Assembly (NCBI GenBank): GCA_040902725.1
Contig: JBBDWU010000045.1
Span: 3,341 to 67,340 of the forward strand
Length of the DNA: 64,000 nucleotides
Direction: 5' to 3'
Source of the DNA: Gaiellaceae bacterium
GTDB lineage: Bacteria; Actinomycetota; Thermoleophilia; Gaiellales; Gaiellaceae
Every line of letters starts with the position of its first letter. Position 1 is the stretch's first letter. Made by a program: the position numbers and the translations under genes. The notes under the pieces were generated by a model, which saw nothing but the letters and a program-made list of their open reading frames with translations, did not search any database and had not been told where the DNA came from. Shown piece by piece: positions 1-48,824 of this stretch.

Positions 1-916
1 CGCGGCTCGTGACCAGCAGCCTGAGGTTGGGGCAGCGCTCGACGAGCGACGCGAGCTCGGGAGCCGACGCGACCACGTGCTCGAGGTTGTCGAGCAGGAG
101 CAGAAGATTGCGCTCGCCGATGTGCTCGGCGAGCCCGTTCTTGGCGCCGAGCGTCCGCCCGATCGTTTCCTGGACGAGCGCCGGGTCCCTGAGCGGAGCG
201 AGGCCGACCCAGAACACGCCCGCTTTGAACGCCGTGACGAGCCCGGTCGCCGCCTCGATCGCGAGGCGGGTCTTGCCCGAACCACCGGGACCCGTGAGCG
301 TGACGAGGCGGGCGCCGCCGTCGAGCAGCGCCGTCAGCTCCTCGATCTCCCGCTTGCGGCCGAAGAACGTGCTGGCGGGGCGGGGCAGGTTCGTGTTCGA
401 GATCGTCCCCAGCGGCGGGAACTCGTCGCCGCCCAGTTGGAAGATCGAGACCGGCTCGCCGAAGTCCTTCAGCCGGTGCTCTCCCAGGTCGCCGAAGTCG
501 CCCTCGACCAGGTCGCGCGTGTCCTTCGACAAGAGCACCTGGCCGCCGTGCCCGGCCGCCGCTATCCGCGCGGCCTTGTGCACGTCGTGGCCTACGTAGC
601 CCTCCGCGGCGACGTGCGGCCTGCCCGTGTGCAGGCCCATCCGGACGCGGATCGGGCCCGCGGCCAGCTCGTCGAGCGCCTGCTTGGCTGCCGCGAGCGC
701 TCCGGGCGCCGTTGGGAAGGCTACGAAGAACGCGTCCCCCTGCGTATCGACCTCGACGCCGCCGTGAGCGGCGAAGGCGTGCCGCAGCGCGCGGCGATGC
801 TCGGCCAGCGCCTCCGCGTAGGCGGCCGCCCCCAGCTCATGCAACAGCGTCGTCGAGCCTTCGACGTCGGTAAAGAGGAACGTGACCTCCCCCGCGAGCA
901 AGTCGTCGCGCGCCAT
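1..916 (-). CDS. Class III nucleotidyl cyclase fused to NB-ARC/STAND ATPase (paralog 1), N-terminal ~305 codons; the 3' part lies beyond the window
   Basis: My translation of the minus strand from ATG 916..914 gives MARDDLLAGEVTFLFTDVEGSTTLLHELG..VDTQGDAFFVAFP..GHDVHKAARIAAAGHGGQVLLS..LGEHRLKDF (cyclase). It continues FFGRKREIEEL..LVTLTGPGGSGKTRLAIEAA (Walker A)..LLLLLDNLEHV (Walker B)..RLLVTSR. There is no stop in the window, so it is absent from the ORF track; 77..1096(+) is its antisense shadow. Confidence 0.85.
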   Translation of the reverse strand, partial: MARDDLLAGEVTFLFTDVEGSTTLLHELGAAAYAEALAEHRRALRHAFAAHGGVEVDTQGDAFFVAFPTAPGALAAAKQALDELAAGPIRVRMGLHTGRPHVAAEGYVGHDVHKAARIAAAGHGGQVLLSKDTRDLVEGDFGDLGEHRLKDFGEPVSIFQLGGDEFPPLGTISNTNLPRPASTFFGRKREIEELTALLDGGARLVTLTGPGGSGKTRLAIEAATGLVTAFKAGVFWVGLAPLRDPALVQETIGRTLGAKNGLAEHIGERNLLLLLDNLEHVVASAPELASLVERCPNLRLLVTSR

Positions 917-940
917 CACGCCGAGATTGCCACGCACGCC

Positions 941-971
941 GGCAAAAGAACAGGCCCGCTCGCGCGGGCCT
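941..971 (-). terminator. Putative intrinsic terminator/attenuator between vapC and cyclase paralog 1
   Basis: An 8-bp GC stem AGGCCCGC/GCGGGCCT (952..959 and 964..971, loop tcgc) is followed on the minus strand by GTTCTTTTG (plus-strand ggcaaaagaac, 941..951). Confidence 0.45.
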
Positions 972-1001
972 CTCGAGTAGCGGGGGCGCGAACTGGACCC
1001 A

Positions 1002-1449
1002 TTAGCGACGATCTCGTCGAGGTCGAGTCCGTTGAGAAGTGGCCATCGCCGGGCTCGCAGCGACCTGGATCCCTTCGGCCCGGGCAGCACGGATGATCTT
1101 CTGATCGAACGACGTCATCGACGCGTCGACATGCCGAGCGGTCGCGAGGCAGTAGGCGTCTGGAAGGCTGATCGGATGGGCGCGCCGGAGTCGTGCCGCC
1201 TCGACTCCGATCGCCTCGCTCGGCTGATGGATCGCGACGCCCAGAGCAACGATCGCGGCGCGCGCTCGCCTGAACCGCCCATGGTCCGCGGCCGGCGCGA
1301 CGAGCACCCTCGGACAGGTTGACGACGCTGGTCAGCAAGGTCGTGTCTCCTCGGTGCCAGGCCCTGAAGAGAACGCGCGTTTGCGAATGGTGGGGATCGG
1401 AAGCGTCGAGCGCGCCGATCAGAACGTCGGCGTCGAGGACGATCTTCAC
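1002..1449 (-). pseudogene. vapC: PIN-domain toxin VapC, interrupted by a 1-nt frameshift (or an assembly error)
   Basis: The N-terminal half starts at GTG 1449 (VKIVLDADVLIGALDASDPHHSQTRVLFRAWHRGDTTLLTSVVNLSE). The C-terminal half is in the next frame (ORF 1002..1307: VLVAPAADHGRF..ISLPDAYCLATARHVDASMTSFDQKIIRAARAEGIQV). The junction gag-g-gtg (1311..1305) carries one extra G in a GGG run. The PIN acidic residues (LDAD, NLSE, LPDAY, SFDQ) are all present. Confidence 0.75.
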
Positions 1450-1568
1450 CGCGCGGCGTCTTCGGCGTCGAGCTGGTCGAGATACCCAGACGGATAGGTA
1501 CCGGTGAGCGCACCGAACGCGCTCTCCAGGCTGTCCTCGCCGCGGCGGATACGCGCAGTAAAGGACAT
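1446..1568 (-). CDS. 40-aa antitoxin-like ORF upstream of vapC
   Basis: ATG 1568 to TGA 1446 encodes MSFTARIRRGEDSLESAFGALTGTYPSGYLDQLDAEDAAR, which is below the ORF-track size cutoff. Its stop overlaps the vapC GTG (GTGA), as in type II TA pairs. It is too short to hold a full DNA-binding VapB fold, so the identity is tentative. Confidence 0.45.
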   Translation of the reverse strand: MSFTARIRRGEDSLESAFGALTGTYPSGYLDQLDAEDAAR

Positions 1569-1586
1569 GTTCTCGAGGTTCGGCGC

Positions 1587-1616
1587 GGAAGCCCGCGCGG
1601 CCCCGGCGCGGCTTCC
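1587..1616. promoter_or_regulatory. Inverted repeat upstream of the vapB-like ORF (candidate operator)
   Basis: GGAAGCC(C)GCGC at 1587..1598 pairs with GCGCGGCTTCC at 1606..1616, giving 11 bp with one bulged C and a 7-nt spacer. It lies about 20 nt upstream of ATG 1568. The operator role is inferred from the usual autoregulation of TA operons. Confidence 0.3.
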
Positions 1617-1790
1617 CGACCGGTGCGGGCTGCCGGCAATCGCCGCGAAGCTCTCGACGACCCGGCGGGCGCCTTCGCCGGCAAGCGCTCCAGGTCACCC
1701 GCGGCCGGTACCGCGACGACGAGACGCCGGGCCCGCCCGCTCACCCAGCACGAGCGTGGCGGCGCAGCTGCTTTGGCGCATCATGATGCC

Positions 1791-4322
1791 GTGCGCCGCG
1801 ATCTCCCCTCTGGAACCGTCACGTTCCTCTTCACCGACGTCGAGGGCTCGACCAAGCTCTTGCACGAGCTCGGCGCGGAAGAGTACGCGCGTGCGCTCGC
1901 GGAGCATCGCCGTATCCTCCGAGATGCCTTCGCCGCGCACGGCGGCGTCGAGGTCGACACGCAGGGAGACGCCTTCTTCGTCGCCTTCCCGACCGCACCG
2001 GGGGCGCTCGCCGCGGCAGCCGAGGCAACGGAGGAACTGGCTACGGGTCCGATCCGGATGCGGATCGGTTTGCACACCGGCACGCCGCACCTAGCCGAGG
2101 AGGGCTACGTGGGGTCGGACGTGCACAAGGGAGCCCGGATCGCGGCAGCGGGACACGGCGGTCAGGTGCTGCTCTCGAAGGAAACCCGCGAGCTCGCGGG
2201 GGTCGAGGTCGACGTTGCTGACCTCGGCGAGCACCGCCTGAAGGACTTCGCCGAGCCGGTGTGGATCTTCCAGCTCGGCGCGGGACGCTTCCCGCCGCTG
2301 AAGACGATCTCGAACACGAACCTGCCCCGGCCGGCGAGCTCGTTCGTCGGCCGGGAGCGCGAGGTCTCGGAGATCGGGGCGCTCCTTCGCGACGGTACGC
2401 GTCTCGTCACGCTCACCGGGCCTGGCGGCTCGGGCAAGTCGCGGCTGGCGATCGAGGCCGCGGCCGAGCTCGTACCCGAGTTCAGGAACGGCGTCTTCTG
2501 GATTGGCTTGGCGCCGCTCCGAGACCCGACCCTCGTGATGGAGACGGTGGCCCGGGCCGTGGGGGCGACTGACGGCCTTGCCGAACACGTTGCGGAGCGC
2601 GAGCTGCTGCTGCTGCTCGACAACTTTGAGCAGGTCGTCGAGGCCGCGCCGGAGCTCCCAGCCCTGCTCGAGTCCTGTCCGAACCTACGCGTACTCGTCA
2701 CGAGCAGAGAGCTGCTGCGCGTGCGGGGCGAGGTCGAGTACGCAGTGCCCACGCTGGCCGAGCGGGAGGCGGTCGAGCTCTTCTCCGCTCGTTCAGATCT
2801 CGCGCCGGACGAGACGATCGCCGAGCTCTGCCGGCGCCTCGACACCCTGCCGCTGGCTGTTGAGCTGGCGGCAGCGCGCACGAGCGTCCTCTCTCCCGCC
2901 CAGATCCTGGAGCGCCTCTCACACCGTCTCGATCTATTCAAGGGAGGCCGGGACGCCGACCCGCGCCAGCAAACGCTGCGCGCGACAATCGCATGGAGCT
3001 ACGAGCTGCTGGGGCAGGAGGAGCGGCGCCTCTTCGCGCGACTCGCAGTCTTCGTCGGCGGGTGCACGCTCGAAGCCGCGCAAGAGCTCGCGGAGGCCGA
3101 CCTCGACCCGCTCCAATCACTCGTCGACAAGAGCCTCCTCCGCCACACGGACGAACGGTTCTGGATGCTCGAGACGATCCGGGAGTACGCGGCCGAGCGC
3201 CTCGAGGAATCGGGCGAGGCCGATCGGTTGCGGCGGAAGCACGCGGAGCACTTCCTCGCGCTCGCGGAGGAGGCGGCGCCGAACCTCCGCGGGGCGAGCG
3301 CGAGCCCCGGCCCGTGGCTGGACCGGCTGGAAGCCGAGCACGACAACGTCCGAGCCGCGTTCGACCGCCTCCAGGTCATCGGCGAGACACAGCGTGTCCT
3401 ACGGCTGGCCGGAGCCCTGTGGGTGTTCTGGAACGTGAGAGGTCACCTGCGTGAAGCCAGACGTCGCCTCGATCGCGCACTCGACGGCAACGAGCGTCCG
3501 ACCGCAGCGCGCGCGAGAGCACTCGTCGGGGCGGCCGCGGTCTCAGCGGCGAGCGGAGACTCCGCGACGGCCACGATGCGGGCCGAGGCGGCGCTCACGT
3601 TGCACCGCTCACTCGGCGATCGGTGGGGCGCCGCGCTGTCTCAGTCGTACATCGCCACCGCTGCCGCCCAGGAACGCGACTGGGCGAAGGCGCAGCCAAT
3701 AGCGGAGAAGTGCGCGCGAGCGTTCGAAGAGCTCGGCGACGAGCACTACGCGATGCTGGCGAAGTGGCTCCTGGCCTGGATGTGCAGGGAGCTCGGCGAT
3801 CGCGAACGCGCCCGCGCACTGGCCGAGGAAAACGTCGGGCGCGCACGTGCGCTGGGTAACGAGCGCGTCGAGGCGCGCTCGCTGGGCTCCCTGGCGATGC
3901 TGGCTGTCGACGAGGGCCGGCTCGAGGACGCGGTGGCGACGCTCAAGGAGGCGAACCGGATCCACCGCGCCCTCGGCGACCGGTTCGAGATCGCGCTCGA
4001 CCTCTGCCGCTTCGCGCGCGCGCTCGCAGCTGCCGGACGGCCGGGAACGGCGGCGCGGATCCTCGCCACGGGCGAGGCTCTACGCGAGCAGATCGGCGCG
4101 ACGCTGGAATCATGGATCGCCATGGAGGCGAAGCTCGGAGAGACGCTCACAGCGGCCCGCGCGCAGCTCGGTGCAGCCGCTTTCGCCGAAGCGTGGGAGC
4201 AAGGACGCTCGCTAACGGCCGACGAGGGCGTCGAGCTCGCCCTCGACGCCCTGGACCGTGCTCGCCCGCGCAATCCAGCGACACCGGATCCTCCGGCCGA
4301 ATCCCGATCTCGTGATGTGTGA
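1791..4322 (+). CDS. Class III nucleotidyl cyclase - NB-ARC/STAND ATPase - TPR protein (paralog 2)
   Basis: Uses the frame of ORF 1623..4322. The start is taken at GTG 1791 (VRRDLPSGTVTFLFTDVEGST) by analogy with paralogs 1 and 3. Cyclase motifs: FTDVEGST, TQGDAFFVAF, DVHKGARIAAAGHGGQVLLS. NB-ARC motifs: GPGGSGKSRLA, LLLLDNFEQV, VTSRE, LPLAVELAAA, and a winged helix LFARLAVFVGGCTLEAA..MLETIREYA. The C-terminal region is TPR-like repeats, with no HTH at the C-terminus. Confidence 0.9.
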   Translation: MRRDLPSGTVTFLFTDVEGSTKLLHELGAEEYARALAEHRRILRDAFAAHGGVEVDTQGDAFFVAFPTAPGALAAAAEATEELATGPIRMRIGLHTGTPHLAEEGYVGSDVHKGARIAAAGHGGQVLLSKETRELAGVEVDVADLGEHRLKDFAEPVWIFQLGAGRFPPLKTISNTNLPRPASSFVGREREVSEIGALLRDGTRLVTLTGPGGSGKSRLAIEAAAELVPEFRNGVFWIGLAPLRDPTLVMETVARAVGATDGLAEHVAERELLLLLDNFEQVVEAAPELPALLESCPNLRVLVTSRELLRVRGEVEYAVPTLAEREAVELFSARSDLAPDETIAELCRRLDTLPLAVELAAARTSVLSPAQILERLSHRLDLFKGGRDADPRQQTLRATIAWSYELLGQEERRLFARLAVFVGGCTLEAAQELAEADLDPLQSLVDKSLLRHTDERFWMLETIREYAAERLEESGEADRLRRKHAEHFLALAEEAAPNLRGASASPGPWLDRLEAEHDNVRAAFDRLQVIGETQRVLRLAGALWVFWNVRGHLREARRRLDRALDGNERPTAARARALVGAAAVSAASGDSATATMRAEAALTLHRSLGDRWGAALSQSYIATAAAQERDWAKAQPIAEKCARAFEELGDEHYAMLAKWLLAWMCRELGDRERARALAEENVGRARALGNERVEARSLGSLAMLAVDEGRLEDAVATLKEANRIHRALGDRFEIALDLCRFARALAAAGRPGTAARILATGEALREQIGATLESWIAMEAKLGETLTAARAQLGAAAFAEAWEQGRSLTADEGVELALDALDRARPRNPATPDPPAESRSRDV

Positions 4323-4374
4323 AGTCATCGCCGGGCACTTGTCGCGGGTCCACATCGTCGCCCCGCCCCTGACG

Positions 4375-4407
4375 AGAAAAATCCCTGCGCTTAGCAGGGA
4401 CTTTTCT
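4375..4407. terminator. Bidirectional intrinsic terminator
   Basis: A 7-bp stem TCCCTGC/GCAGGGA (4382..4388 and 4394..4400, loop gctta) is flanked by gagaaaaa upstream and cttttct downstream. It therefore offers a U-tract on both strands, after cyclase paralog 2 (+) and after tRNA-fMet (-). Confidence 0.7.
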
Positions 4408-10208: not shown

Positions 10209-10892
10209 GTGATCACGGCGCTCCTCTTCGACTTCGACGGCGTGATCGTCGATACGGAGGTTCCGACATTCCAGTCGTGGCGCGATACCTACGCCGAGTA
10301 CGGTGTCGACCTTGCGCTTGACGACTGGCTGCCCGCAGTTGGCAGCGGGAGCTCGACGTCAGGCGCTTTCGATGCCGTTGCCCATCTCGAACGGCTGACC
10401 GGAATTACCGTTGATCGGGAGGCGGTCATTGCAAAGAGAACGCAGCGAAAGGCTGAGCTGTACGCGCGCGCTCCGCTCCTGCCCGGCGTGCGCGAACGGC
10501 TCGCGGAAGCTCGGGAACGCGGCTTGAAGACGGCGATCGTCACACGAAACCGTGACGACCGAGTGAGGGCGCAGTGTCACACCGTAGGCCTCAACCACCA
10601 ATGGCAGGCACTCATCTGCGCGAACGAGGACCCGATGCGCGACAAGGCAGAGCTCTATCGGCACGCGCTCACCGTTCTCGAAGTTCACGCGAACCAGGCG
10701 TTGGCGTTCGAGGACTCGCCGGCGGGCGTTCGCGCGGCCAAGCAGGCGCAAGTGCTTTGCGCCGCCGTCCCGAGCGAGATCACGCGCGGTGCAGCGTTCG
10801 ACGAAGCCGACATCGTGCTTTCGTCCCTCGCTGAGCATCCGTTGGCCGAGATCGTGCGTCTGGCGGCTGCCGCCAGAGCGCCTAGTACCTGA
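10209..10892 (+). CDS. HAD-IA family hydrolase (beta-phosphoglucomutase-like)
   Basis: MITALLFDFDGVIVDTE (DxDG motif I), VTRN (motif II region) and AFEDSPAGVRAAKQAQ (motif III/IV). It is noticeably less GC-rich than its neighbours. Confidence 0.85.
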   Translation: MITALLFDFDGVIVDTEVPTFQSWRDTYAEYGVDLALDDWLPAVGSGSSTSGAFDAVAHLERLTGITVDREAVIAKRTQRKAELYARAPLLPGVRERLAEARERGLKTAIVTRNRDDRVRAQCHTVGLNHQWQALICANEDPMRDKAELYRHALTVLEVHANQALAFEDSPAGVRAAKQAQVLCAAVPSEITRGAAFDEADIVLSSLAEHPLAEIVRLAAAARAPST

Positions 10893-12021
10893 GCAGCGCG
10901 CCGATCCCCTCGGCCGGATCGAGGTCGGGCCGGTCGCCGACCGCGCGCACGGTGCCGCCGTGCGCGAGCGTCTGGTGGACGGCGAGGTCGAGCCCCTCTC
11001 CGCGCGGCTCCATCTGCGTCCCGTCGAGCGGGCAGCTGCCGTCGGCGACGTCAACCCGCCCGCAGCGCGGGCACTGGTACGCCTCCCGGTTGGCGCCGTC
11101 GCGGTAGAGCAAGAGCTCCACGCGCCCGTCCGAGGCCGCCTCCAGCACGCGCTCCCAGCCCGCGGCGGCGCGGCCGTTCCGGCCCGCCTCCTCCCGCCAG
11201 CGGTCGAGCGCGGCCGTCTCCTGCCGGACACGCCACTCCTGCAGCACCGGCGTCGCCAGCTCGAGCAGCTGCGCGGGGGTCGCATGTGCTTCCGCGTGCG
11301 TCCAGCCGGCCAGGGCGGCGCGGGTGTCCTGGGCCAGCAGCTCCTCGAACTCGTTGCGCATCGGCTCCGGGCAGACGATCACCACGCCCGGCCCGTGCAG
11401 CCGGCGCACCACCCGGTTGAGGGCGGAGGCCACGCGGCGCATGTGCTCCGCCGAAAGCTCGTCGATGTGCCGCTGGAAACGCGCCTGGGACCAGCCGCCC
11501 TGGTCGTGCCGGCCCGGCTGCTCGTCCCGCTCGTCGACCGCCTCGTGCAGCTTCCCGTCGCGCAGCCGGTAGACCTCGCCGCGCTCGCGGCTGACCATCG
11601 CGACCAGCGCCCCGTCCCCGCGCCCCACGAGCGGCACGAGCGGCGCGAGGTAGAGCTCGTTCGCCACCTTGACGGTGTCCGGAACGGGCTCGGTCAGCTG
11701 GAGCACCTGCCACAGGTTGTCGGGCCCGTCCGCGAAGACCGCGAGGCCTTGCGACCCCTGCCGGTCGAAGTCGTCGTCGAGGTAGCGGCGGATGCGCTCG
11801 AAGTCGGCCTTGAGCCCCGCGCGCTGGTCGTGAGACAGGTCGCCCTGCGAGGCCATGCGCCGCTCGCCCTCGCTGAGGAGCGAGTTGGCGTGCGCGGCGA
11901 CGTCGCCCGCGGTGGGCGCGACGCTCGGATCGAGATCGAGGTAGAGGCTGATCGCTCGGCCGCGCGCGGCCCGGAAGGCCGCCAGCTCTTTCAGCTTCTC
12001 CCAACTGACGGTGGCTGCCAT
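10882..12021 (-). CDS. Bacterial eRF1-like / Vms1(VLRF1)-like release-factor-fold protein with a Zn-ribbon insert
   Basis: The 379-aa product has the three-domain eRF1-like layout by eye. The central loop reads GRHDQGGWSQARFQRH, and the C-terminal domain has CPRCG..x9..CPLDG. An SD (aggggg) lies 4 nt before ATG 12021. Confidence 0.6.
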   Translation of the reverse strand: MAATVSWEKLKELAAFRAARGRAISLYLDLDPSVAPTAGDVAAHANSLLSEGERRMASQGDLSHDQRAGLKADFERIRRYLDDDFDRQGSQGLAVFADGPDNLWQVLQLTEPVPDTVKVANELYLAPLVPLVGRGDGALVAMVSRERGEVYRLRDGKLHEAVDERDEQPGRHDQGGWSQARFQRHIDELSAEHMRRVASALNRVVRRLHGPGVVIVCPEPMRNEFEELLAQDTRAALAGWTHAEAHATPAQLLELATPVLQEWRVRQETAALDRWREEAGRNGRAAAGWERVLEAASDGRVELLLYRDGANREAYQCPRCGRVDVADGSCPLDGTQMEPRGEGLDLAVHQTLAHGGTVRAVGDRPDLDPAEGIGALLRY

Positions 12022-22919: not shown

Positions 22920-23993
22920 GTGGACGCAAACACGATCGTGGTGCTCGAGGGCGACGACACCGGGCAGGAGCTGCTCGAGGAGGCGCTGCGCGTGCTGGCA
23001 GCCGGCGTGATCGGGATCGAGCTCGAGTTCCCGCGGGTCGACCTCTCACTGGAGCGGCGGCGCGAGACGAAGAACGCGGTCGTGCACGAGGCGGCCGCGG
23101 CGATCCGCGAGGTCGGCATGGGCCTCAAGGCCGCCACGATCACGCCCGAGGGCGCGGACGACGTCGGCTCGCCGAACCGGATCCTGCGGGAGAAGATCGG
23201 CGGCAAGGTGATCGTGCGCACCGGGCGCCGGATCCCCGGCATCGTCCCGCTCGGCGGCGTCCACGCGCCGATCTCGATCGTGCGCATGGCCGTCGGCGAC
23301 GCCTACGGCGCCGAGGAGTGGCGCGAGGGGTCGGGCGACGACGAGGTCGCGCTGCGGACGGAGCGGATCGAGCGGCGGATCTGCCGCGCGGTCGCCGAGT
23401 ACGCCTTCCGCCTCGCCGAGCGCACGGGCGCGAAGGTCTTCGGCGGCCCGAAGTACACGGTCAGCCCGGTGTACGAGGGGATGCTGAAGGAGGAGATGGA
23501 CGCCGCCGCCGCGCGACACCCCGGCGTGCCCTACGAGCCGCAACTGATCGACGCGACCTTCGCCCTCCTGATCGCCGCGTCGGGCGACCCGCTCGTCATC
23601 CCCGCGCTCAACCGCGACGGCGACATCCTCTCCGACCTCGTCCTGCCGCTGTTCGGCTCGATCGCGGGCTCGGAGTCGCTCCTGATCGCGTTCGACGAGG
23701 ACTACGCGCCGCGCGCGCTGATGGCGGAAGCCGCCCACGGGACGGCGCCCTCGCTGCAGGGGAAGAACGTGGCGAACCCGATGGCGATGATCCTGGCGGG
23801 CGCCGCGCTGCTCGCGCACGGCTCGGACGAAGGCGCCCAGCAGGCGGGGCGCGCGATCCGCGAAGCCTGCCTGGAGGCGGTGGCGCAGGGCGTCCGGACG
23901 GCCGACCTCGGCGGCCACGCCTCGACGACCGAGTTCACGGACGAGGTGATCGGGCGCGTCCGCGCGAAGCTGGAGGTCTGGTCGGCCCTCTAG
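22920..23993 (+). CDS. Isocitrate/isopropylmalate dehydrogenase-family protein
   Basis: GDDTGQELLEEA..NRDGDILSDL..AEAAHGTAP..NPMAMILAGAALL. The GTG start at 22920 is preceded by TAACCT 7 nt upstream. Confidence 0.8.
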   Translation: MDANTIVVLEGDDTGQELLEEALRVLAAGVIGIELEFPRVDLSLERRRETKNAVVHEAAAAIREVGMGLKAATITPEGADDVGSPNRILREKIGGKVIVRTGRRIPGIVPLGGVHAPISIVRMAVGDAYGAEEWREGSGDDEVALRTERIERRICRAVAEYAFRLAERTGAKVFGGPKYTVSPVYEGMLKEEMDAAAARHPGVPYEPQLIDATFALLIAASGDPLVIPALNRDGDILSDLVLPLFGSIAGSESLLIAFDEDYAPRALMAEAAHGTAPSLQGKNVANPMAMILAGAALLAHGSDEGAQQAGRAIREACLEAVAQGVRTADLGGHASTTEFTDEVIGRVRAKLEVWSAL

Positions 23994-26458
23994 GCATCGA
24001 TGCCTGCCTCCTCGAGCGCCAGGTCGACGGCAGCGTCCGGAGTGAGTGCTCGGCCTTCATCCTGTGCGTCCGTCAGCGCGCGCTCGTCGAGGTGCGCGCC
24101 GATGGCGGCGAGCGTCTGCGCATTCCTCGCGGCAATCAACGCGGCGCTCGCCCCGGTCTCGCTGAACAGGCTCCCCGCGCATCCCAGGAGCCGGGCAGCA
24201 CCGGCCGGCGCTCGACCCGCGAGCGCCGTTGCCAGGACCGTCAGCAGGGTCGCGATCTCGTTTTGCGCGCCGAGGTTCCTCTGTATCGCGTACGCCCTCT
24301 TCAGCAGGGCGACAGCGCGATCGGTCTCGCCCTCGTCGCAAAGGGCTTCAGCCATCATGATCAGCGCGTTTGCCTCGATGCGCACCATTCCCGCCGCGCG
24401 CGCCCGCCTCAATACCTGCTCGTACGCCGCTCGGGAGCGGTCACGCTCACCGAGCATCAAGTCCATCCACCCGGCCACTGTCATGGCGAGCAGCTCGAAG
24501 TGCTCGTCACCTACCTCGCGAAAACGTCGCACGCTGTCTTCGAAGAGGGCACGCGCGTGGACGAGGTTCCCTTCCTCGCGGATCACCTGACCGAGCAGGA
24601 ATCCCGAGCGCGCGATTCCCCACGCATTGCCGAGCTCGCGGTTGATCGCCATCGCTTCGTCGGCGCGAGCCCTCGCAGTCATGATGTCGCCACATTCGAT
24701 CGCCGTGGCGGTCGCGCCGTTGAGGGCGATCCCACGCGCTGCGGTCCGCTGGGGGGATTGCGCCAGGACGGCTTCGAGGCGCCGCCGTCCCTCGGCAATG
24801 TGTCCCTTGATGTACCAGAAGTACCAGAGGGCGCCGGCGAGCCGTACCGCACGCTGCGCGTCGGCATCCTCGAGCCGATCGAGCGCCGCGCGGAAGTTGT
24901 CGCTTTCGCGTTCCATCGGCCCCAGCCAGTCCTGTGGCCTTGCCGCGACCTGCGGTCCAGCCTCCTCCGCGAGCGCGAGGAAGAACTCGGCGTGGCGCAG
25001 GCGGATGTCGTCCCCCTCGCCGGAGGCCTCCAGGCGCTCGGCGGCGAACTCGCGGATGGTCTCCAGCATCCAGAACCGCTCTCCCGTGTGGCGAACGAGG
25101 CTCTTGTCGACGAGCGACTGGAGATCGTCGAGGTCGGCTTCGCAGATGCCTTCGGCCGCCTCGAGGCTGCAGCCGCCGCGGAAGACGGCCAGGCGCGCGA
25201 AGAGCCGCTGCTCCTCCGGCCGCAGCAGCTCGTGGCTCCACTCGATGGTGGCCCGCAGCGTCTGCTGGCGCGGGTCGACCCCGCGGCCCGCCTTGAGCAG
25301 GTCGAGCCGCAGGGCGAGGCGCTCGAGGAGCTGCTCGGGCGAGAGCACGGCCACGCGTGCCGCCGCCAGCTCGAGCGCGAGCGGCAGCTGCTCGAGTCGA
25401 GCGCAGAGCTCGGGGACGGCGGCGCTCGCCTGGAAGTCGGGCACCGCTGCACGCGCCCGGGCGAGGAAGAGCTCCGTCCCCTCCTCGGGATCGAGCGGGG
25501 GCACCGCGTAGGCCTGCTCGCCGGGGACGCGCAGCAGCTCGCGGCTCGACACGAGCAGCTGGAGGTTCGGGCAGGCGGCGAGCAGTCCGGCCAGGCCGGG
25601 GGCGGCCTCGATCACGTGCTCGAAGTTGTCGAGCAGCAGCAGCAGCGACCGGTCGCCGATGTGCTCGGCCAGCCCGTCCTTGGCGCCAATCGCCGCTCCC
25701 GCAGTCTCCAGCACGAGCTGCGGGTCGCGGAGCGGCCCCAGCGGCACCCACCAGACGCCGTGCGGATGGTCGTCCGCGGCTCCCGCGGCCGCCTGAAGTG
25801 CCAGCCGCGTCTTGCCCGTCCCGCCCGGCCCCGTCAGGGTCAGCAGGCGGACGTCTCCGCGCCCGAGCAGGCCAAGCACCTCCTCGAGCTCCCGCTCCCG
25901 CCCGACGAACGGGGTCGCGGGAACGGGCAGGTTGGTCTGGTACAGGCTCTTCAGCGGCGGAAACTCGTCCGCGCCGAGCTGGTAGATCCGCTCCGGCGCC
26001 GACAGGTCTTTCAGCCGGTGCTCGCCCAGGTCGCGTAGGCCGTCCGGGTCGACCAACGCCGCCGTGGAAGCCGAGACGAGCACCTGCCCGCCATGCCCGC
26101 ACGCCGCGATCCGGGCCGCCCGGTGCACGTCAGCGCCCACGTAGCCCTCGTCCGTCACGTGCGGCGTGCCGGTGTGGATCCCCATCCGCACGCGGATCGG
26201 CCCGGCCGCCAGCCCCCCCAGCGCTTCGGCCGCCGCCCGCAGCGCGGCCGGAGCCGTGGGGAAGGCGACGAAGAACGCGTCCCCCTGCGTGTCCACCTCC
26301 ACGCCCGCGTGCGCGCCGAACGCGTGCCGCACGATCCGCCGGTGCTCGGCCAGGGCGGCTGCGTATCCCTCCGCCCCCAGCCCGTCCAGCAGCTTCGTCG
26401 AGCCCTCCACGTCCGTGAACAGGAAGGTCACCGTCCCCGCGGGAAGATCGCTCCGCAC
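23990..26458 (-). CDS. Class III nucleotidyl cyclase - NB-ARC/STAND ATPase - TPR protein (paralog 3)
   Basis: GTG 26458 gives VRSDLPAGTVTFLFTDVEGSTKLL..TQGDAFFVAFP..DVHRAARIAACGHGGQVLVS..FVGRERELEEV..LTLTGPGGTGKTRLA..LLLLDNFEHV..VSSRE..LPLALELAAA..MLETIREFA, followed by TPR repeats. The upstream portion of the 1130-aa track ORF is Arg/Pro-rich shadow. Confidence 0.9.
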   Translation of the reverse strand: MRSDLPAGTVTFLFTDVEGSTKLLDGLGAEGYAAALAEHRRIVRHAFGAHAGVEVDTQGDAFFVAFPTAPAALRAAAEALGGLAAGPIRVRMGIHTGTPHVTDEGYVGADVHRAARIAACGHGGQVLVSASTAALVDPDGLRDLGEHRLKDLSAPERIYQLGADEFPPLKSLYQTNLPVPATPFVGRERELEEVLGLLGRGDVRLLTLTGPGGTGKTRLALQAAAGAADDHPHGVWWVPLGPLRDPQLVLETAGAAIGAKDGLAEHIGDRSLLLLLDNFEHVIEAAPGLAGLLAACPNLQLLVSSRELLRVPGEQAYAVPPLDPEEGTELFLARARAAVPDFQASAAVPELCARLEQLPLALELAAARVAVLSPEQLLERLALRLDLLKAGRGVDPRQQTLRATIEWSHELLRPEEQRLFARLAVFRGGCSLEAAEGICEADLDDLQSLVDKSLVRHTGERFWMLETIREFAAERLEASGEGDDIRLRHAEFFLALAEEAGPQVAARPQDWLGPMERESDNFRAALDRLEDADAQRAVRLAGALWYFWYIKGHIAEGRRRLEAVLAQSPQRTAARGIALNGATATAIECGDIMTARARADEAMAINRELGNAWGIARSGFLLGQVIREEGNLVHARALFEDSVRRFREVGDEHFELLAMTVAGWMDLMLGERDRSRAAYEQVLRRARAAGMVRIEANALIMMAEALCDEGETDRAVALLKRAYAIQRNLGAQNEIATLLTVLATALAGRAPAGAARLLGCAGSLFSETGASAALIAARNAQTLAAIGAHLDERALTDAQDEGRALTPDAAVDLALEEAGIDA

Positions 26459-26490: not shown

Positions 26491-27039
26491 CTAGGCCGTC
26501 GCGGCGAGCGCGGCGCCCTCGGCCCAGACGGCGAGGAACGTGTAGGCGATGCGCGGGTCGAACTGCGTCCCCGCGCAGCGCTCGATCTCCTCGAACGCGA
26601 CGCCCGGGTCGAGCGCGCTGCGGTAGGGCCGGTCGGAGGTCATCGCGTCGTAGGCGTCGGCGACCGCGAGCAGGCGCGCCTCGACCGGGATCGCCGTCCC
26701 CGCCAGGCCGCGCGGGTACCCCCAGCCGTCCCAGCGCTCGTGATGGCAGAGCACGTACGTCAGGGCGGCCTGCGCGGAGGAGAGCTCTTCGAGTAGGCGC
26801 GCGCCGGCGGCGGGATGCTGCTCGATCTCGGCCCGCTCGACCGCGTCCAGCGGCCCGGGCTTCCGCAGGATCTCGGGCGAGACCGAGAGCTTGCCGACGT
26901 CGTGGAGCGCGCTGCCGAGCCGCAGCCCCTGGAGCGGCCCGCCCTCCCAGCCGAGCCGGCGCGCGACCGGATCGGCGAGGGCCGCCACGCGCGCCGAGTG
27001 CTCGAAGATCGCGTCGACCACTGCCGGATGCAGTTCCAC
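26491..27039 (-). CDS. Stand-alone HD-GYP domain phosphohydrolase
   Basis: HSARVAAL..ALHDVGKLSV..HPAAGARLL..HHERWDGWGYPRGL..VADAYDAMTSDRPYR. The start is uncertain: I took GTG 27039, while the track start at 27156 would overlap the pntAA start. The stop lies 32 nt upstream of cyclase paralog 3. Confidence 0.8.
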   Translation of the reverse strand: MELHPAVVDAIFEHSARVAALADPVARRLGWEGGPLQGLRLGSALHDVGKLSVSPEILRKPGPLDAVERAEIEQHPAAGARLLEELSSAQAALTYVLCHHERWDGWGYPRGLAGTAIPVEARLLAVADAYDAMTSDRPYRSALDPGVAFEEIERCAGTQFDPRIAYTFLAVWAEGAALAATA

Positions 27040-27063
27040 GCGGGCGGCATAGACTCCTGCCCC

Positions 27064-28137
27064 GTGAGGGTCGGCGTCCCGAAGGAGAACGCTCCCGACG
27101 AGCGCCGGGTCGCGCTCGTGCCCGAGGCCGTCCAGAAGCTCGTCCAGAAGGGGCACGAGGTGGTGGTGGAGGGCGGCGCGGGCGCGGGCGCGTTGTTCGC
27201 CGACGAGGAGTACGAGGCCGCCGGCGCGGCCATCGGCGACCCCTACGACGCCGACGTCGTCGTCTGCGTCCAGCGGCCGAGCGAGGACGCTCTCCGCTCC
27301 GGAACGGTGCTCGTCGGGCTGCTCCAGCCGCTGGCCGAGCCGGAGGCGATCGAGCGGCTCGCCGAACGCGGCGTGACCGCACTCGCGCTGGAGGCCGTCC
27401 CGCGGATCACGCGCGCCCAGGCGATGGACGCGCTTTCCTCGCAGGCGACGCTCGCGGGCTACAAGTCCGTCCTGATCGCGGCCGACCGCCTGCCGCGGCT
27501 GTTTCCCATGCTGACAACGGCGGCGGGCACGGTGCGCCCGGCCAAGGTGCTCGTGCTCGGCGCCGGCGTCGCCGGCCTGCAGGCGATCGCGACCGCGCGG
27601 CGGCTGGGGGCGCGGACCTTCGGTTTCGACGTGCGGCCGGTCGTTCGCGAGCAGGTCGAGAGCCTCGGCGCCTCGTTCCTGGACCTCGGAATCGTCGGCG
27701 AGGAGACGGAGGGCGGCTACGCCCGCGAGCTGACGCCGGACGAGCAGCGGCGCCAGCAGGGGGAGCTCGAGCGGCGGCTGCCCGAGTTCGACGTCGTGAT
27801 CACGACCGCCCAGATCCCGGGGCGGCGCGCGCCGCGGCTGATCCCGGCCGCCGCCGTCGAGGCCATGCAGCCCGGCTCCGTGATCGTCGACCTGGCCGCG
27901 GAGACGGGCGGCAACTGCGAGCTGACCGAGGCGGGCGCCGAGGTGGTGCGCAACGGGGTCACGATCGTCGGGCCGACGAATCTCGCCGCCACCATGCCCG
28001 TCGACGCGAGCCGGCTCTACTCCCGGAACGTGAGCGCGCTGCTCGAGCTGCTCGCGCCCGACGGTGAGCTCCAGCTCGATTTCGACGACGAGATCGTCGC
28101 CGCCGCCTGCGTGACCCGCCGGCAGGTGCGCGCATGA
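27064..28137 (+). CDS. pntAA: NAD(P) transhydrogenase subunit alpha, part 1
   Basis: GTG 27064 gives VRVGVPKENAPDERRVALVP..VLGAGVAGLQAIATARRLGA, an alanine dehydrogenase/PNT fold. Confidence 0.9.
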   Translation: MRVGVPKENAPDERRVALVPEAVQKLVQKGHEVVVEGGAGAGALFADEEYEAAGAAIGDPYDADVVVCVQRPSEDALRSGTVLVGLLQPLAEPEAIERLAERGVTALALEAVPRITRAQAMDALSSQATLAGYKSVLIAADRLPRLFPMLTTAAGTVRPAKVLVLGAGVAGLQAIATARRLGARTFGFDVRPVVREQVESLGASFLDLGIVGEETEGGYARELTPDEQRRQQGELERRLPEFDVVITTAQIPGRRAPRLIPAAAVEAMQPGSVIVDLAAETGGNCELTEAGAEVVRNGVTIVGPTNLAATMPVDASRLYSRNVSALLELLAPDGELQLDFDDEIVAAACVTRRQVRA

Positions 28138-29818: not shown

Positions 29819-29819
29819 C

Positions 29820-44289: not shown

Positions 44290-45594
44290 TCACCTCCTCA
44301 CCGGCAATGCGGGAATGGTGCCCTTGCCGAGCTGTTTCATGACCTGCTCCATCTGCGTGCGCGCGCGCAGCAGCCGGTTGACCTGCTGGACGGACGTCCC
44401 GGAGCCGTGCGCGATCCGGCGGCGGCGGGCGCCGTCGATCAGCTCCGGCCGGCGGCGCTCCTGCGGCGTCATCGAGAGGACGATCGCCTCGACGCGCGCG
44501 AGCTCCCGCTCGTCCACGTCGACGTCGGCCAGCTGCGAGCCGATGCCCGGCACCAGCTTGAGGATCCCCTGGAGCGGCCCCATGCGGCGGATCATCTTCT
44601 GCGCGGCGAGAAAGTCGTCGAACGTGAACTTGCCGGCGCGGACCCGCTCCTCGAGCGCCTCCTGCTCGTCCTCGCCGATCGCCTCCTCGGCCTTCTCGAT
44701 CAGGGTCAGGACGTCGCCCATGCCGAGGATGCGCGAGGCCATGCGGTCGGGGTGGAAGTACTCGAGCTGGTCGAGCTTCTCGCCGGTCGAGGCCAGCTTG
44801 ATCGGCCGGCCGGTGGCGGCCTTGACCGAGAGGGCGGCGCCACCGCGGGCGTCGCCGTCCAGCTTGGTCAGGACGACGCCGTCGAAGTCGATCCGCGCCT
44901 GGAAGGCGAGGGCGACGTTGACGGCCTCCTGGCCGGTCATCGCGTCGAGGACGAGCAGCACGTTGTGCGGCTTCGCCTCGCGGCGCACGGCGGCCAGCTC
45001 CTCCATCAGGGCCTCGTCGACGTGGAGGCGGCCGGCGGTGTCGAGGATGAGGACGTCCTCCTCCGCCTGCGCGATGCCCGCGCGCACGGCCGCGATCGGG
45101 TCGGAGCGCTCCTCGGAGTAGACGGGGACGTCGATCTGGCGGCCGAGCTGTTCCAGCTGGTCGATCGCCGCCGGGCGCTGGAGGTCGGCGGCGACGAGCG
45201 CCGGCCGCTTCCCCTCCTTGCGCAGCAGCAGCGCGAGCTTCGCCGCCGCGGTCGTCTTCCCCGAGCCCTGGAGCCCGGCGAGCAGGACGACGGTGGGCGG
45301 GCGCCCGGCGAACGCGAGCTTCGAGCTGCCGGCGCCCATCAGGCTCGTCAGCTCCTCGTGGACGATCTTCACGACCTGCTGGCCGGGCGTGAGGCTCTTC
45401 GCGACCTCCGCGCCGAGCGCGCGCTCGCGCACGGCGGCGACGAAGTCGCGGACGACCTTCAGGTTGACGTCGGCCTCGAGCAGCGCCAGCCGGATCTCGC
45501 GCATCGCGCGCGCGAGCGACTCCTCGTCCAGGCGGCCGCGGCCGCGGACGTCGGCGAGGGCGTGCTGGAGCTTGTCTCCGAGGGCTTCGAACAC
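44290..45594 (-). CDS. ffh: Signal recognition particle protein Ffh
   Basis: An N-domain is followed by the G-domain motifs [14 protein letters not shown] and [10 protein letters not shown], then a Met-rich M-domain. Confidence 0.95.
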
Positions 45595-45665
45595 GGTCGC
45601 GAAGCGTAGCCGCCAGCCGCGTGGAGATACTGAGCGCTGTCCAGTCGTCTCGCAAGGAGGTAGTC

Positions 45666-45887
45666 ATGTCAGCGGAGCACGAGACTCGCGTCGCCAAGGT
45701 GGTCACGATCATCGGCACGTCGCCGGAGAGCTTCGCCAAGGCGGCGGCCGCGGCCGTCGAGGAGGCAGCGAAGACGCTGCGCGGCATCACGGGCGCGGAT
45801 GTCCTCTCGATGAGCTGCGGCGTCAATGACGGCCGGATCGTCGAGTACCGCACGACCGTCAACATCGCTTTCGGGCTCGAGCGCTAG
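45666..45887 (+). CDS. Dodecin-family small protein (73 aa)
   Basis: The SD aaggagg lies 5 nt before ATG 45666. The product is MSAEHETRVAKVVTIIGTSPESFAKAAAAAVEEAAKTLRGITGADVLSMSCGVNDGRIVEYRTTVNIAFGLER. This matches the dodecin beta-alpha-beta-beta pattern (V.E..GTSP.S...A...A...A.KTLR......V......V.DG.I.EYR..V...F). Confidence 0.75.
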   Translation: MSAEHETRVAKVVTIIGTSPESFAKAAAAAVEEAAKTLRGITGADVLSMSCGVNDGRIVEYRTTVNIAFGLER

Positions 45888-45932
45888 CTGACCTAGTAGG
45901 CGAACCAGCACGGGCGTCCTACACTCGGCGGC

Positions 45933-48824
45933 ATGACCGCCTCGCCCCCTTCGGCGAGCCGCCGCACCGTCACCGTCCTCTTCTGCGACGTCGTCGACTC
46001 GACGCCGCTCGGGGAGCGCCTCGACGCGGAGACCCTGCGGCGGGTCCAGACCGAGTACTTCGCAGCGGTGCGGGGCGTGCTCGAGCGGCACGGCGGCCTC
46101 GTCGAGAAGTTCATCGGGGACGCGGCCATGGCCGTATTCGGCCTGCCCACACTGCACGAGGATGACGCGCTCCGCGCCGCCCGCGCCGCGTCCGAGCTCG
46201 GCGCGGCCGTCCTGCCGATCGACCGCGAGCTCGACAGGGACCACGGCCTGCGGCTGAGAATCCGGGTCGGAGTCGCCACGGGCGAGGTCGTCACCGGCGA
46301 TCCGGCCGGCGGCCAGGCACTCGCCACGGGCGAGACGGTCGTGACGGCCCAACGCCTCGAGCAGGCGGCTCGGCCCGAGGAGGTGCTCGTCGACGACCCG
46401 ACCTACCGCCTGATCGCGGACGCCGTCGACGCCGAGCCGGTCGAGGCCGTCGCCGCGAAGGGCAAGACCGAGCCCGTCGCGGCCTGGAGGTTGCTGGGGG
46501 TCGAGACGGGCGCGCTGGGCGTGGCCCGCCGCTTCGACACGCCGCTCGTCGGTCGCGAGAGCGAGCTGGCCGCGTTGCGCGGCGCGCTCGAGCGGGCCCT
46601 CGCGGGGCGCCGCTGCCAACTCGTGACCGTGGTCGGGCAGGCGGGCGTCGGTAAATCGCGCCTCGTGCGCGAGTTCCTCCTCGAGGCCGGGCCGGCGGCA
46701 ACGGTGCGGATTGGACGCTGCCCGCCCTACGGCGACGGCATCACCTTCTTGCCCGTCGCGGAAGTGCTCCCGGACGAGACGCTCGAAGGCACGACGGACG
46801 AGATCTTTCGGCGCGTGCGCAAGAGCTTCGAGCAGCTGGCCGAGCGAGGACCGCTCGTTCTCTGCTTCGACGACGTTCACTGGGCGGAGCCGACCTTCCT
46901 CAACCTCGTCGATTACCTGAAGGGCTGGATCGTCGCTGCCCCGGTCCTGATCGTTTGCCTGGCTCGCCCGGAGCTGCTCGACGAGCGACCCGAGTGGCAG
47001 CAGTCGAGCCTCTCGCTGCCGCCGCTCTCCCCGGCGGAGATCGAGACCCTGCTCGATGCGCTCGATGCGCCTGCGGAGGCCCGTGGCCGGATCGCGGAAG
47101 CCGCCGAGGGGAACCCCCTCTTCGCCGAGCAGGTGGCGGCGATCGCCGTCGACGAGGGCTCGGAGTTCGTCGTGCCGCGCTCGATCCAGCTCTTGCTTGC
47201 CGCTCGGCTCGACCGGCTCGCGGCGAGCGAGCGCTCGGTCGCGGAGTGGGCGGCGGTCGTCGGGCGCGAGTTTCCCCTGCGGGCGGTGGCGGCCCTTGCG
47301 CCGGAGGAGATGCGCGCCGAGGTCGCAGGGCACCTGTTCGCACTGCTCCGCAAGGACCTGGTCGAGCCGCACGCCGGCCTCTTTTGGGAGGAGGACGGCT
47401 TCCGCTTCCGGCACGGCCTCATCCGCGATGTCGCGTACGAGGGAATCCCGAAGGAGGTGCGCGCCGAGCTCCACGAACGCTACGCGCGCTGGTACGACCG
47501 CTACCACGGCGAGGACGTGATCGTCGGCTATCACCTCGAGCAGGCGTTCCGGTACCGGCAGCAGCTCGGGCGTGTCGACGAGTCCCTGGGGGAGGAGGCC
47601 GGGCGCTGCCTGGCGGTCGCGGGCCGGCGAGCGTTCGCGCGCCAGGACACGCCGGCCGCGACCAAGTTGCTCCAGCGAGCGCTCGCGCTCCTACCGAAAG
47701 ACGACCCGGAGCGGCGCGAGCTCATGCGCGAGGAGAGCATCGCCCTCTGGCTCGGCGGCGAGGCCAGAAAGAGCACGGCGGTGCTGGACGAGCTGCTCGA
47801 GTTGGCGGTCGAATCCGGCGACAGGCGGATGGAGTGGTACGCGCTGCTCGAGCGCGCCCACCGCCGCACGATGATCGACCCCGGAGCCACCGCGGACGAG
47901 CTCCTCGCCGTGACGGAGCAGGCGATCGCGGTGTTCGAGGAGCTCGGGGACGAGTCCGGCCTCGCCCAGGCCTGGCGGCGCCGCTCGCTGGCCCCGCGAG
48001 GGCAGGGGGACTTCGCCACGGCCGAGGAGGCACTCGAGCGGGCGTACGTCCACGCCCGCAAGGCGACCGACCGCCAGGAGCAGGGCCGGACGATCGACGC
48101 CCTGTGCGGCATCCTCCTTTACGGCCCGGCCCCCGTCGACGCCGCCCTCCGCCGCTGCGACGAGCTGCTCGAGGCCGCCGGCGGCGATCTGCTCGCCGAG
48201 GCTTGCGTGCTGAGGACGACCGCGGCGCTGCGCGCGATGCGGGGAGAGTTCGGGCTGAGCCGCTCGCTTTGCGCCGGCGTCAGGGAGACGTATCAGGATC
48301 TGGGGCTCCGCCTCGCGCTCGTCGCGCTGGCGGAGATCGCGGGTGGGATCGAGCTGCTCGCAGGGAACGCGGCGGAGGCGGAGGTCGCTCTGCGTGGGGG
48401 CTACGAAATCCTCTTCGCCATGGGCGACGCCACCGTCGTCGCCTTCCAGGCGGGCCTGCTCGCCGAGACGGTCGCGCTGCAGGGGCGGCTGGAGGAGGCG
48501 GAGGAGCTCGTCCGGCGCGCCGAGGAAGGGGCTGCCGAGGACATTGGCGCCCAGATCCACTGGCGCGCCACGAAGGCGGCCATCGAGAGCCTGCGCGGCC
48601 GGCACGACGCCGCGATCGAGCTCGCGCGGAAGGCCGTCGAGATCGCGGCCGGCACCGACGCTCTCAACATGCACGCCGGTGCCGCCCTCCGGCTCGCTGA
48701 GGTCCTGAGGCGCGCAGGCCGGCTCGAGGAAGCAGCGCGTTCGGCGAGCGACGCAGTGCGCCTGTACGAGCACAAGGGGAACGTCGTGGCCGCCCGCGCC
48801 GCCCTTCCGTCCGTGGCGGTTTAG
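45933..48824 (+). CDS. Class III nucleotidyl cyclase - AAA(AAA_16-like) ATPase - TPR protein (distant paralog 4)
   Basis: VTVLFCDVVDSTPLGERLD..EKFIGDAAMAVFG..RIRVGVATGEVV..GETVVTAQRLEQAA (cyclase). Then LVGRESELAALRGAL..VVGQAGVGKSRLV (Walker A)..LCFDDVHWAE (Walker B), followed by a long TPR-like C-terminus. TACACT lies 7 nt upstream of ATG 45933. Confidence 0.9.
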   Translation: MTASPPSASRRTVTVLFCDVVDSTPLGERLDAETLRRVQTEYFAAVRGVLERHGGLVEKFIGDAAMAVFGLPTLHEDDALRAARAASELGAAVLPIDRELDRDHGLRLRIRVGVATGEVVTGDPAGGQALATGETVVTAQRLEQAARPEEVLVDDPTYRLIADAVDAEPVEAVAAKGKTEPVAAWRLLGVETGALGVARRFDTPLVGRESELAALRGALERALAGRRCQLVTVVGQAGVGKSRLVREFLLEAGPAATVRIGRCPPYGDGITFLPVAEVLPDETLEGTTDEIFRRVRKSFEQLAERGPLVLCFDDVHWAEPTFLNLVDYLKGWIVAAPVLIVCLARPELLDERPEWQQSSLSLPPLSPAEIETLLDALDAPAEARGRIAEAAEGNPLFAEQVAAIAVDEGSEFVVPRSIQLLLAARLDRLAASERSVAEWAAVVGREFPLRAVAALAPEEMRAEVAGHLFALLRKDLVEPHAGLFWEEDGFRFRHGLIRDVAYEGIPKEVRAELHERYARWYDRYHGEDVIVGYHLEQAFRYRQQLGRVDESLGEEAGRCLAVAGRRAFARQDTPAATKLLQRALALLPKDDPERRELMREESIALWLGGEARKSTAVLDELLELAVESGDRRMEWYALLERAHRRTMIDPGATADELLAVTEQAIAVFEELGDESGLAQAWRRRSLAPRGQGDFATAEEALERAYVHARKATDRQEQGRTIDALCGILLYGPAPVDAALRRCDELLEAAGGDLLAEACVLRTTAALRAMRGEFGLSRSLCAGVRETYQDLGLRLALVALAEIAGGIELLAGNAAEAEVALRGGYEILFAMGDATVVAFQAGLLAETVALQGRLEEAEELVRRAEEGAAEDIGAQIHWRATKAAIESLRGRHDAAIELARKAVEIAAGTDALNMHAGAALRLAEVLRRAGRLEEAARSASDAVRLYEHKGNVVAARAALPSVAV

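Follow-up and report, generated by a model that had tools for sequence, protein, structure and literature searches.

In a 64-kb stretch of DNA from a Gaiellaceae bacterium (GenBank assembly GCA_040902725.1, contig JBBDWU010000045.1, positions 3,341 to 67,340; the whole stretch is called the window here), four genes, which we name g1–g4, encode proteins in which a class III nucleotide cyclase domain is followed by a STAND ATPase module and tetratricopeptide repeats (TPRs). We consider it probable that these cyclase-STAND proteins are ligand-gated, oligomerization-activated class III cyclases that take part in ordinary second-messenger signaling. Two scaffolds are represented: g1–g3 and a further paralog, on contig C3, join a LipJ-type cyclase head to an AfsR-like NB-ARC–TPR scaffold, and g4 carries a canonical-type cyclase head on an AAA_16/MalT-like one. 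The window, with ~72% G+C, lies on contig C45 of a 2.15-Mb assembly of 57 contigs that is 93% complete; residues of the NB-ARC type are numbered as in g2 and those of the AAA_16 type as in g4. An earlier note on this DNA had already drawn attention to the four genes, and its interpretation as a whole is partly supported by what follows.

All four open reading frames (ORFs) that had been listed as cyclase-STAND-TPR genes are present, and their division into three NB-ARC-type paralogs and one AAA_16-like gene agrees with Pfam, motifs and fold. On the minus strand, g1 (2..916) runs off the left end of the window, which holds its N-terminal 305 residues (the cyclase and the start of the ATPase); complete in the genome, it is an 821-residue cyclase–NB-ARC–TPR protein whose C-terminus is made up of TPR-like helices without a helix-turn-helix (HTH). 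The gene g2 (1791..4322, plus strand) encodes 843 residues of cyclase–NB-ARC–TPR, g3 (23990..26458, minus strand) encodes 822 residues with the same architecture, and g4 (45933..48824, plus strand) encodes 963 residues of cyclase–AAA_16/MalT-type STAND–TPR. Domains were called with Pfam at gathering scores and with NCBIfam, PDB sequence matches were sought with phmmer, and defense models were taken from PADLOC. The Pfam family Guanylate_cyc (PF00211) scores 37.9–64.5 bits in g1–g4 against a gathering cut-off of 21.9, and the cyclase domain begins at residue 7–10 in all four, with no domain N-terminal to it. TPR_12 is matched in g2, g3 and g4, the genes whose C-terminus falls inside the window. 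For the ATPase, AAA_16 is strong in g4 (66.8 bits) and reaches 29–32 bits in g1–g3, below the cut-off of 32.6; NB-ARC reaches ~22 bits in g1 and g2 only, just below its cut-off of 23.5, and nSTAND is also borderline in g1–g3. Because these scores of g1–g3 are sub-threshold, their class assignment rests on motifs and fold. The absence of a LuxR-type HTH, which the earlier note had also claimed, holds throughout: Pfam gives no GerE match in any of g1–g4, and all 13 GerE matches in the genome fall outside cyclase ORFs.

What do the motifs and the fold look like? In g2, the cyclase domain occupies residues 1–165 (with key residues D16, D56, D60, E104-G105, H112 and R116), a linker residues 166–195, the NB-ARC-type nucleotide-binding domain (NBD), helical domain and winged-helix domain residues 196–545 (GPGGSGKS, LLLLDN, TSRE, LPLA, MLETIRE), and the TPRs residues 546–822. 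The full set of STAND motifs is thus intact in the g2 type, i.e. Walker A, Walker B, sensor-1 Arg, GxP-type LPLA, winged helix and C-terminal repeats. In g4, the cyclase residues are D19, K59, D63 and R141, with Val137 at the position of the transition-state Asn; the ATPase motifs are GQAGVGKS and LCFDD, and the TPRs extend to the C-terminus. An AlphaFold2 model of g2 consists of the cyclase (predicted local distance difference test score, pLDDT, ~80–90), a flexible linker, the NBD, a winged helix, an unbroken TPR solenoid up to residue 822 and a disordered tail. Its cyclase domain superposes on Rv1900c (1ybu_B) with a template-modeling (TM) score of 0.90 and a root-mean-square deviation (rmsd) of 1.7 Å, and on Ma1120 (5d0e) likewise with a TM score of 0.90, the rmsd over the two structures being 1.7–2.0 Å; the body of the model resembles the STAND–TPR structure 6mfv. 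The sole PDB sequence match of the g2 ATPase part is a plant NB-ARC protein (9jbn, E 0.002). Among NCBIfam models, the best cyclase match of the g2 and g3 heads is LipJ (77 bits against a cut-off of 800 bits), their ATPase–TPR bodies match AfsR, FxSxx_TPR and HaaT (E 1e-9 to 6e-20), and the cyclase–AAA_16 part of g4 matches the TOMM kinase/cyclase fusion TIGR03903 (E 4e-54). The family PF25872 is assigned to most g2 homologs and presumably covers the STAND/winged-helix part.

The catalytic residues speak for working cyclases. Both metal-binding Asp positions are intact, as had been claimed, in the motifs FTD and GDA of g1–g3 and FCD and GDA of g4. In an alignment of 49 g2 homologs, D16, D60, R116, the P-loop (G210-K216), the Walker B pair (D277-N278), the sensor-1 residue (R306) and P354-A356 of the LPLA motif are invariant in 49/49, and every metal- and phosphate-contacting residue of the cyclase, triphosphate loop included, is invariant across g2 homologs. 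With the metal Asp residues and the Arg so conserved, the suggestion of the earlier note that the nucleotide product itself is the output is the natural reading of these sequences. Of the transition-state pair, the Arg is kept in g1–g4, and the Asn is replaced by His in g1–g3 and by Val in g4: the motifs read DVHKAAR in g1 (His codon at 578–580), DVHKGAR in g2 (His112, codon at 2124–2126), DVHRAAR in g3 (His codon at 26123–26125) and TVVTAQR in g4 (Val137, codon at 46341–46343). The best sequence match of the g2 head among all PDB chains is Rv1900c/LipJ (1YBT, E 5e-16), and the phmmer alignment sets "sdvHkgaR" of g2 over "vavHigaR", making His112 the counterpart of His402; the best match of g4 is Cya2 (2W01), with "etVVtaqR" over "aqVNltyR", which places Val at the Asn position. 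These alignments to Rv1900c and Cya2 show that the earlier assignment of these residues was correct.

Does the replacement of the Asn mean a new chemistry, a question that the earlier note had raised? The motif was located in 137 cluster representatives, and the position is His in 128 of them, Asn in 6 and Val in 3, so that His and Asn interchange within the NB-ARC-type family. Among the 16 cyclase domains of the genome, 4 have the canonical Asn and 8 have His, and half of these eight His-type domains are not fused to any STAND module. In Rv1900c, an active adenylyl cyclase, His402 negates the need for the Asn (PMC4886424), and Ma1120, whose natural residue here is Ala164, is active, the A164N substitution drastically lowering its activity (PMC4215837). 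Given these active precedents with His and with Ala, His alone does not signal new chemistry; the Asn-to-His state is already known from Rv1900c and is not new in itself. By analogy, both the His of g1–g3 and the Val of g4 are likely to be tolerated rather than inactivating. The Val is shared by g4 and two same-genus orthologs, which also have GVATGE where the syntenic orthologs of other genera read NTGE, and orthologs outside the genus have the canonical VN(V/L)A(A/K/S)RL; the Asn-to-Val change of g4 thus arose recently, at the level of the genus, in a gene that is inherited vertically.

How would such a protein work? Class III cyclases have their active sites at the interface of a head-to-tail dimer, and STAND proteins oligomerize upon ligand-induced nucleotide exchange. 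In the scheme that we favor, each TPR would bind its own distinct ligand, binding would lift autoinhibition and lead to the exchange of ADP for ATP, the NB-ARC or AAA_16 module would then oligomerize, and oligomerization would pair two cyclase domains into a head-to-tail dimer, forming the active sites. The cyclic nucleoside monophosphate (cNMP) product would probably be cyclic AMP (cAMP), by analogy with Rv1900c and Ma1120, the nearest relatives of known structure, and it would be read by the eight cNMP-binding proteins of the genome, among which are two MFS transporter fusions and small stand-alone domains; the three of these eight that were scanned with Pfam contain no death-effector, TIR or pore fusion. 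The idea of deriving cAMP or cyclic GMP (cGMP) preference from the phosphate-binding cassette (PBC) motifs of these cNMP-binding domains was dropped as unreliable. Among the four NB-ARC-type genes of the genome, identity is 72–82% in the cyclase, 58–72% in the ATPase and 25–47% in the TPRs, and this combination of conserved heads and divergent TPRs is consistent with different sensors acting on one shared enzymatic output.

The family is large, and the genome is rich in it. The genome has nine cyclase-STAND genes, none with a LuxR HTH: four of the NB-ARC type, four of the AAA_16 type with a single cyclase, and one with the order cyclase–cyclase–AAA_16–TPR. Four of the nine lie inside the 64-kb window, more than chance would place there in a genome of 2.15 Mb (Poisson p = 1.7e-4). 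In 30 relatives of the same order, the number of matches per genome is 0–15 for the NB-ARC type and 0–22 for the AAA_16 type, which is not the pattern of a uniform single-copy housekeeping family. At E <= 1e-10, g2 has at least 8,000 matching proteins, many of them named "predicted ATPase/class 3 adenylate cyclase" by the Joint Genome Institute (JGI), and the g2 cyclase head alone matches 2,998 clusters (50% identity) at E <= 1e-30; the best 150 head matches are mostly 800–870 residues long, and head identity among 50%-cluster representatives is 65–79%. The loci come from metagenome-assembled genomes (MAGs) of Gaiellaceae, of other Thermoleophilia and Actinomycetota, and of Candidatus Limnocylindria and Dormibacterota, and the MAG lineages with these genes include many from soil. 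The expanded HTH-less branch that the earlier note had perceived is therefore real and multi-copy, but the expansion is order-wide, reaches other phyla and is not particular to this Gaiellaceae genome. Within the genus, the closest match of g3 is at paralog level (63% identity), for which MAG incompleteness is a possible cause.

Several considerations weigh against signaling by ligand-gated adenylyl cyclases. The activity, the product and the ligand of the cyclase-STAND family are all inferred, and the NBD of the g2 model has low confidence (pLDDT 45–78). The very divergent TPR sensors, the variable copy number among relatives, the clustering of the genes and a neighboring vapBC-like cassette, between g1 and g2, are also traits of immune NLR-like sensors, and a 2026 preprint (10.64898/2026.08.12.744502) puts STAND-fused cyclases in a predicted immune clade. 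Finally, the base-selecting pocket is non-canonical, which makes cAMP as the product an assumption. The base-specifying Lys is Asp in g1–g3 (VEVDTQGDA; Asp56 in g2), and in the NB-ARC type Gly105, with Glu104 just before it, replaces the Asp that precedes the His by seven residues. In other words, the canonical adenine-selecting Lys/Asp dyad is not present in g1–g3, although g4 retains Lys59, and the D / EG / H / R signature recurs in 215 of ~270 homologs.

The pocket is the basis of the alternative that survives best, which we regard as possible but unlikely: the NB-ARC-type heads would be active and make something other than cAMP, the Asp56/Glu104-Gly105/His112 pocket selecting GTP or another nucleoside triphosphate (NTP) so as to yield cGMP or another cNMP. 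Guanylyl cyclases combine Glu at the Lys position with Cys, Ser, Thr, Gly, Ala or His at the Asp position, Cya2 having Gly at the second (PMC4215837), and the pairing of an acidic residue with a small one in g1–g3 is this same pattern, kept in most homologs as just described. Moreover, the one His-clade cyclase of the genome with Lys (at C10:5430) also has Asp seven residues before its His, whereas the Asp-type cyclases of the genome have Gly, Ala or Asn there, and from these Lys/Asp and Asp/small-residue states it follows that the two positions change together. Against this proposal, guanylyl cyclases use Glu, which is longer than Asp; Rv1900c and Ma1120, the closest relatives that have been assayed, act primarily as adenylyl cyclases; and both the base-selecting and the Asn positions are described as dispensable in Rv1900c, so the pocket may not predict specificity in this clade. 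This alternative alters the product only and fits a signaling or an immune role alike. There is a small chance that the Asp56/Glu104-Gly105/His112/Arg116 pocket marks a distinct substrate class and a non-cAMP messenger in the NB-ARC–TPR-gated cyclases of soil Actinomycetota and Chloroflexota; if so, each paralog would feed a different TPR ligand signal into one shared, so far unrecognized messenger pool.

An immune role, with the proteins as NLR- or Avs-like sensors, seems to us less likely again. Here, the TPRs would sense phage or another foreign protein, the STAND module would oligomerize, and a cNMP alarm would reach effectors encoded elsewhere, in the manner of Pycsar or Pucsar. The effector–STAND–repeat layout is that of immune sensors, and "Immune clade 1" of the preprint (10.64898/2026.08.12.744502) comprises cNMP cyclases fused to NACHT and AP-ATPase STAND modules; paralog TPRs that are just 25–47% identical, 0–22 matches per genome among relatives, four genes within 64 kb, the vapBC cassette, and a g2 region that is 94–99% identical to that of another species of the genus, against ~75% at the nucleotide level for the g4 region, would all suit such a role. 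To look for partners, ORFs from the 3-kb flanks of 80 NB-ARC-type loci were clustered (the largest cluster being an overlapping-frame artefact). No conserved partner gene emerged from these flanks; the sole recurrence, which adds to the picture of clustering, is another cyclase-STAND gene, of the AAA_16 type, within 3 kb in 15/80 loci, and a conserved operon partner for the NB-ARC type was accordingly rejected. Neither next to the window genes nor recurrently in the 80 loci is there a cNMP-binding TIR or transmembrane effector of the Pycsar/Pucsar type, and the scanned cNMP-binding proteins, which are either fused to transporters or small domains on their own, include no TIR or pore effector. 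The PADLOC models, including those for Avs/AVAST and bNACHT, give no significant match for g2 or g3; as a defense annotation, g4 was set aside, its generic PycC similarity (8e-14) being what any class III cyclase would give. The neighbors belong to core metabolism and the signal recognition particle (SRP) and not to a defense island, and g4 is vertically inherited at a fixed locus. Finally, the heads evolve slowly compared with the fast-evolving immune clades of the preprint, which argues against membership in such a clade, even if head conservation is not a phylogenetic placement. The likeness to NLR and Avs sensors that the earlier note had pointed out is thus already predicted in the 2026 preprint, and here it finds no support from gene context, PADLOC or a linked effector.

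That the heads, above all that of g4, are pseudo-enzymes whose cyclase domain serves as a nucleotide-binding or dimerization module only is quite improbable: the Val and GVATGE of g4 and its two same-genus orthologs, as opposed to VN(V/L)A and NTGE elsewhere, and the inactive cNMP cyclase domains of related conflict systems (Kaur et al. 2020, PMC7159879) speak for it, but in g4 the two metal Asp residues are retained along with Lys59 and Arg141, Ma1120 is active although its Asn position holds Ala, and the invariance of the metal- and phosphate-contacting residues across the g1–g3 type argues for retained catalysis.

The flanks of the g4 locus are conserved. To its left lies ffh (SRP54; 44290..45594, minus strand) and to its right ftsY (49083..50015, minus strand), and six relatives, which belong to at least five genera, have the same order ffh–cyclase–ftsY; g4 is a vertically inherited syntenic gene. 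A small protein of the dodecin family (45621..45887, plus strand; E 1e-20) is encoded 45 nt upstream of g4 on the same strand, and downstream of g4 there is a dodecin-like small ORF (48858..49082, plus strand), whose Pfam Dodecin score of 22.4 bits is just below the cut-off of 22.5. A dodecin homolog is present at the ffh–cyclase–ftsY locus in five relatives, other genera included, and its retention may hint at a flavin-linked regulatory partner.

The gene g3 is flanked by an isocitrate/isopropylmalate dehydrogenase (Iso_dh) gene and an AlaDH/PNT gene, and a stand-alone HD-GYP-type phosphodiesterase gene (26491..27156, minus strand; Pfam HD_5, E 2e-36; start codon uncertain) ends 32 nt upstream of its start on the same strand. 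That this gene is a partner dedicated to g3 was rejected: in 15 related loci, the homolog has no HD-GYP gene beside it, and there are six HD-GYP paralogs in the genome. We regard the adjacency as either a coincidence at this locus or an operon specific to the lineage.

Between g1 and g2, a vapC-like PIN gene (1005..1449, minus strand) is split into two frames at about base 1308 (N-terminal part 1309–1449, C-terminal part 1005–1307), the result either of a frameshift that left a pseudogene or of a misassembly; directly upstream of it, a 40-residue ORF (1449..1568, minus strand) is vapB-like by position alone. Compared with a locus of the same genus (locus L002 of genome G001), window positions 676–5500 show 94% nucleotide identity over the vapBC–g2 segment and 99% identity in the g2 protein. 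The ffh–g4–ftsY region of the same two genomes is ~75–79% identical, and g1 is not found at the matching position of G001. The high identity of the vapBC–g2 segment suggests recent exchange or a binning artefact. The other genes of the window include those for glutamate dehydrogenase, an AddAB-like helicase-nuclease pair, a thioredoxin-reductase-like oxidoreductase, RmuC and similar proteins, and amid the housekeeping genes there is a baeRF_family10/acVLRF1 protein of the bacterial eRF1-like release-factor family (10882..12021, minus strand).

Elsewhere in the genome, the density of cyclic-nucleotide genes is very high for 2.15 Mb, with 16 cyclase domains, eight cNMP-binding proteins and six HD-GYP proteins. 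On contig C21 (~20.0–23.9 kb, minus strand), outside the window, a 1,253-residue protein has two tandem cyclase domains, AAA_16 and TPRs, and its first cyclase domain looks degenerate at the Asn-Arg motif. On contig C10 (4540–5867, plus strand), also outside the window, a GerE/LuxR-HTH protein is encoded directly upstream of the short His-type cyclase with the canonical Lys/Asp dyad; we take this arrangement to recall the split Rv0890c/Rv0891c pair of M. tuberculosis.

How do these proteins compare with known systems? For the head, the nearest is Rv1900c/LipJ of M. tuberculosis (1YBT, 1YBU), which like g2 has His at the Asn position and a residue other than Lys at the base-specifying Lys position; however, it has Asn342 and Asp395 where the NB-ARC-type family has Asp56 and Gly105, and LipJ has an N-terminal alpha/beta-hydrolase domain, absent from g1–g4, and no STAND or TPR part. 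The Rv0386/Rv1358/Rv2488c class shares with g1–g4 an N-terminal class III cyclase, a STAND P-loop ATPase and helical repeats. Its ATPase is of the AAA_16/MalT-like kind, as in g4, whereas that of g1–g3 is NB-ARC/AfsR-like, and the class ends in a LuxR HTH, whereas g1–g4 and all cyclase ORFs of the genome are without GerE. With AfsR-type SARPs, FxSxx_TPR and HaaT, g2 and g3 have in common the motifs GxGGxGK[ST], LLLLDN, TSRE, LPLA and the (R)FxMLETIRE type; the output of AfsR is a SARP DNA-binding domain, whereas that of g2 and g3 is a cyclase, and the scores lie far below the equivalog cut-offs. The HTH-less cyclase–ATPase–TPR design of g4 is also that of the TOMM kinase/cyclase fusion TIGR03903, which has an N-terminal kinase that g4 is without, and at 184 bits g4 falls far below the 706-bit cut-off. 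"Immune clade 1" (10.64898/2026.08.12.744502) has the same fusion of cNMP cyclase and STAND NTPase; as differences from this clade and from Pycsar and Pucsar, the window genes have slow-evolving heads and housekeeping surroundings, and no cNMP-binding effector is linked to them. The architecture is therefore already known from the Rv0386 class, TIGR03903, full-length soluble adenylyl cyclase (sAC) and the 2026 preprint, and the window genes are further members.

With nine cyclase-STAND sensors, 16 cyclase domains and eight cNMP receptors, this 2.15-Mb genome offers a compact case of dense cyclic-nucleotide signaling in the uncultured Thermoleophilia. To our knowledge, no NB-ARC-gated cyclase has been studied biochemically, though the family is very large. 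A last comparison reaches beyond bacteria: in mammalian ADCY10 (the full-length form, sACfl), as in g1–g4, a STAND P-loop part, predicted in ADCY10, comes after the cyclase and there is no DNA-binding output, and the regulator of that STAND part is still unknown (PMC12802110). ADCY10 has two cyclase domains, C1 and C2, whereas g1–g4 have one and must homodimerize; the 1,253-residue protein of contig C21, with its order C1–C2–AAA_16–TPR, is built like ADCY10. This family would also offer a tractable bacterial model for the control of a cyclase by a STAND module, a problem that is unsolved in the mammalian soluble adenylyl cyclase.

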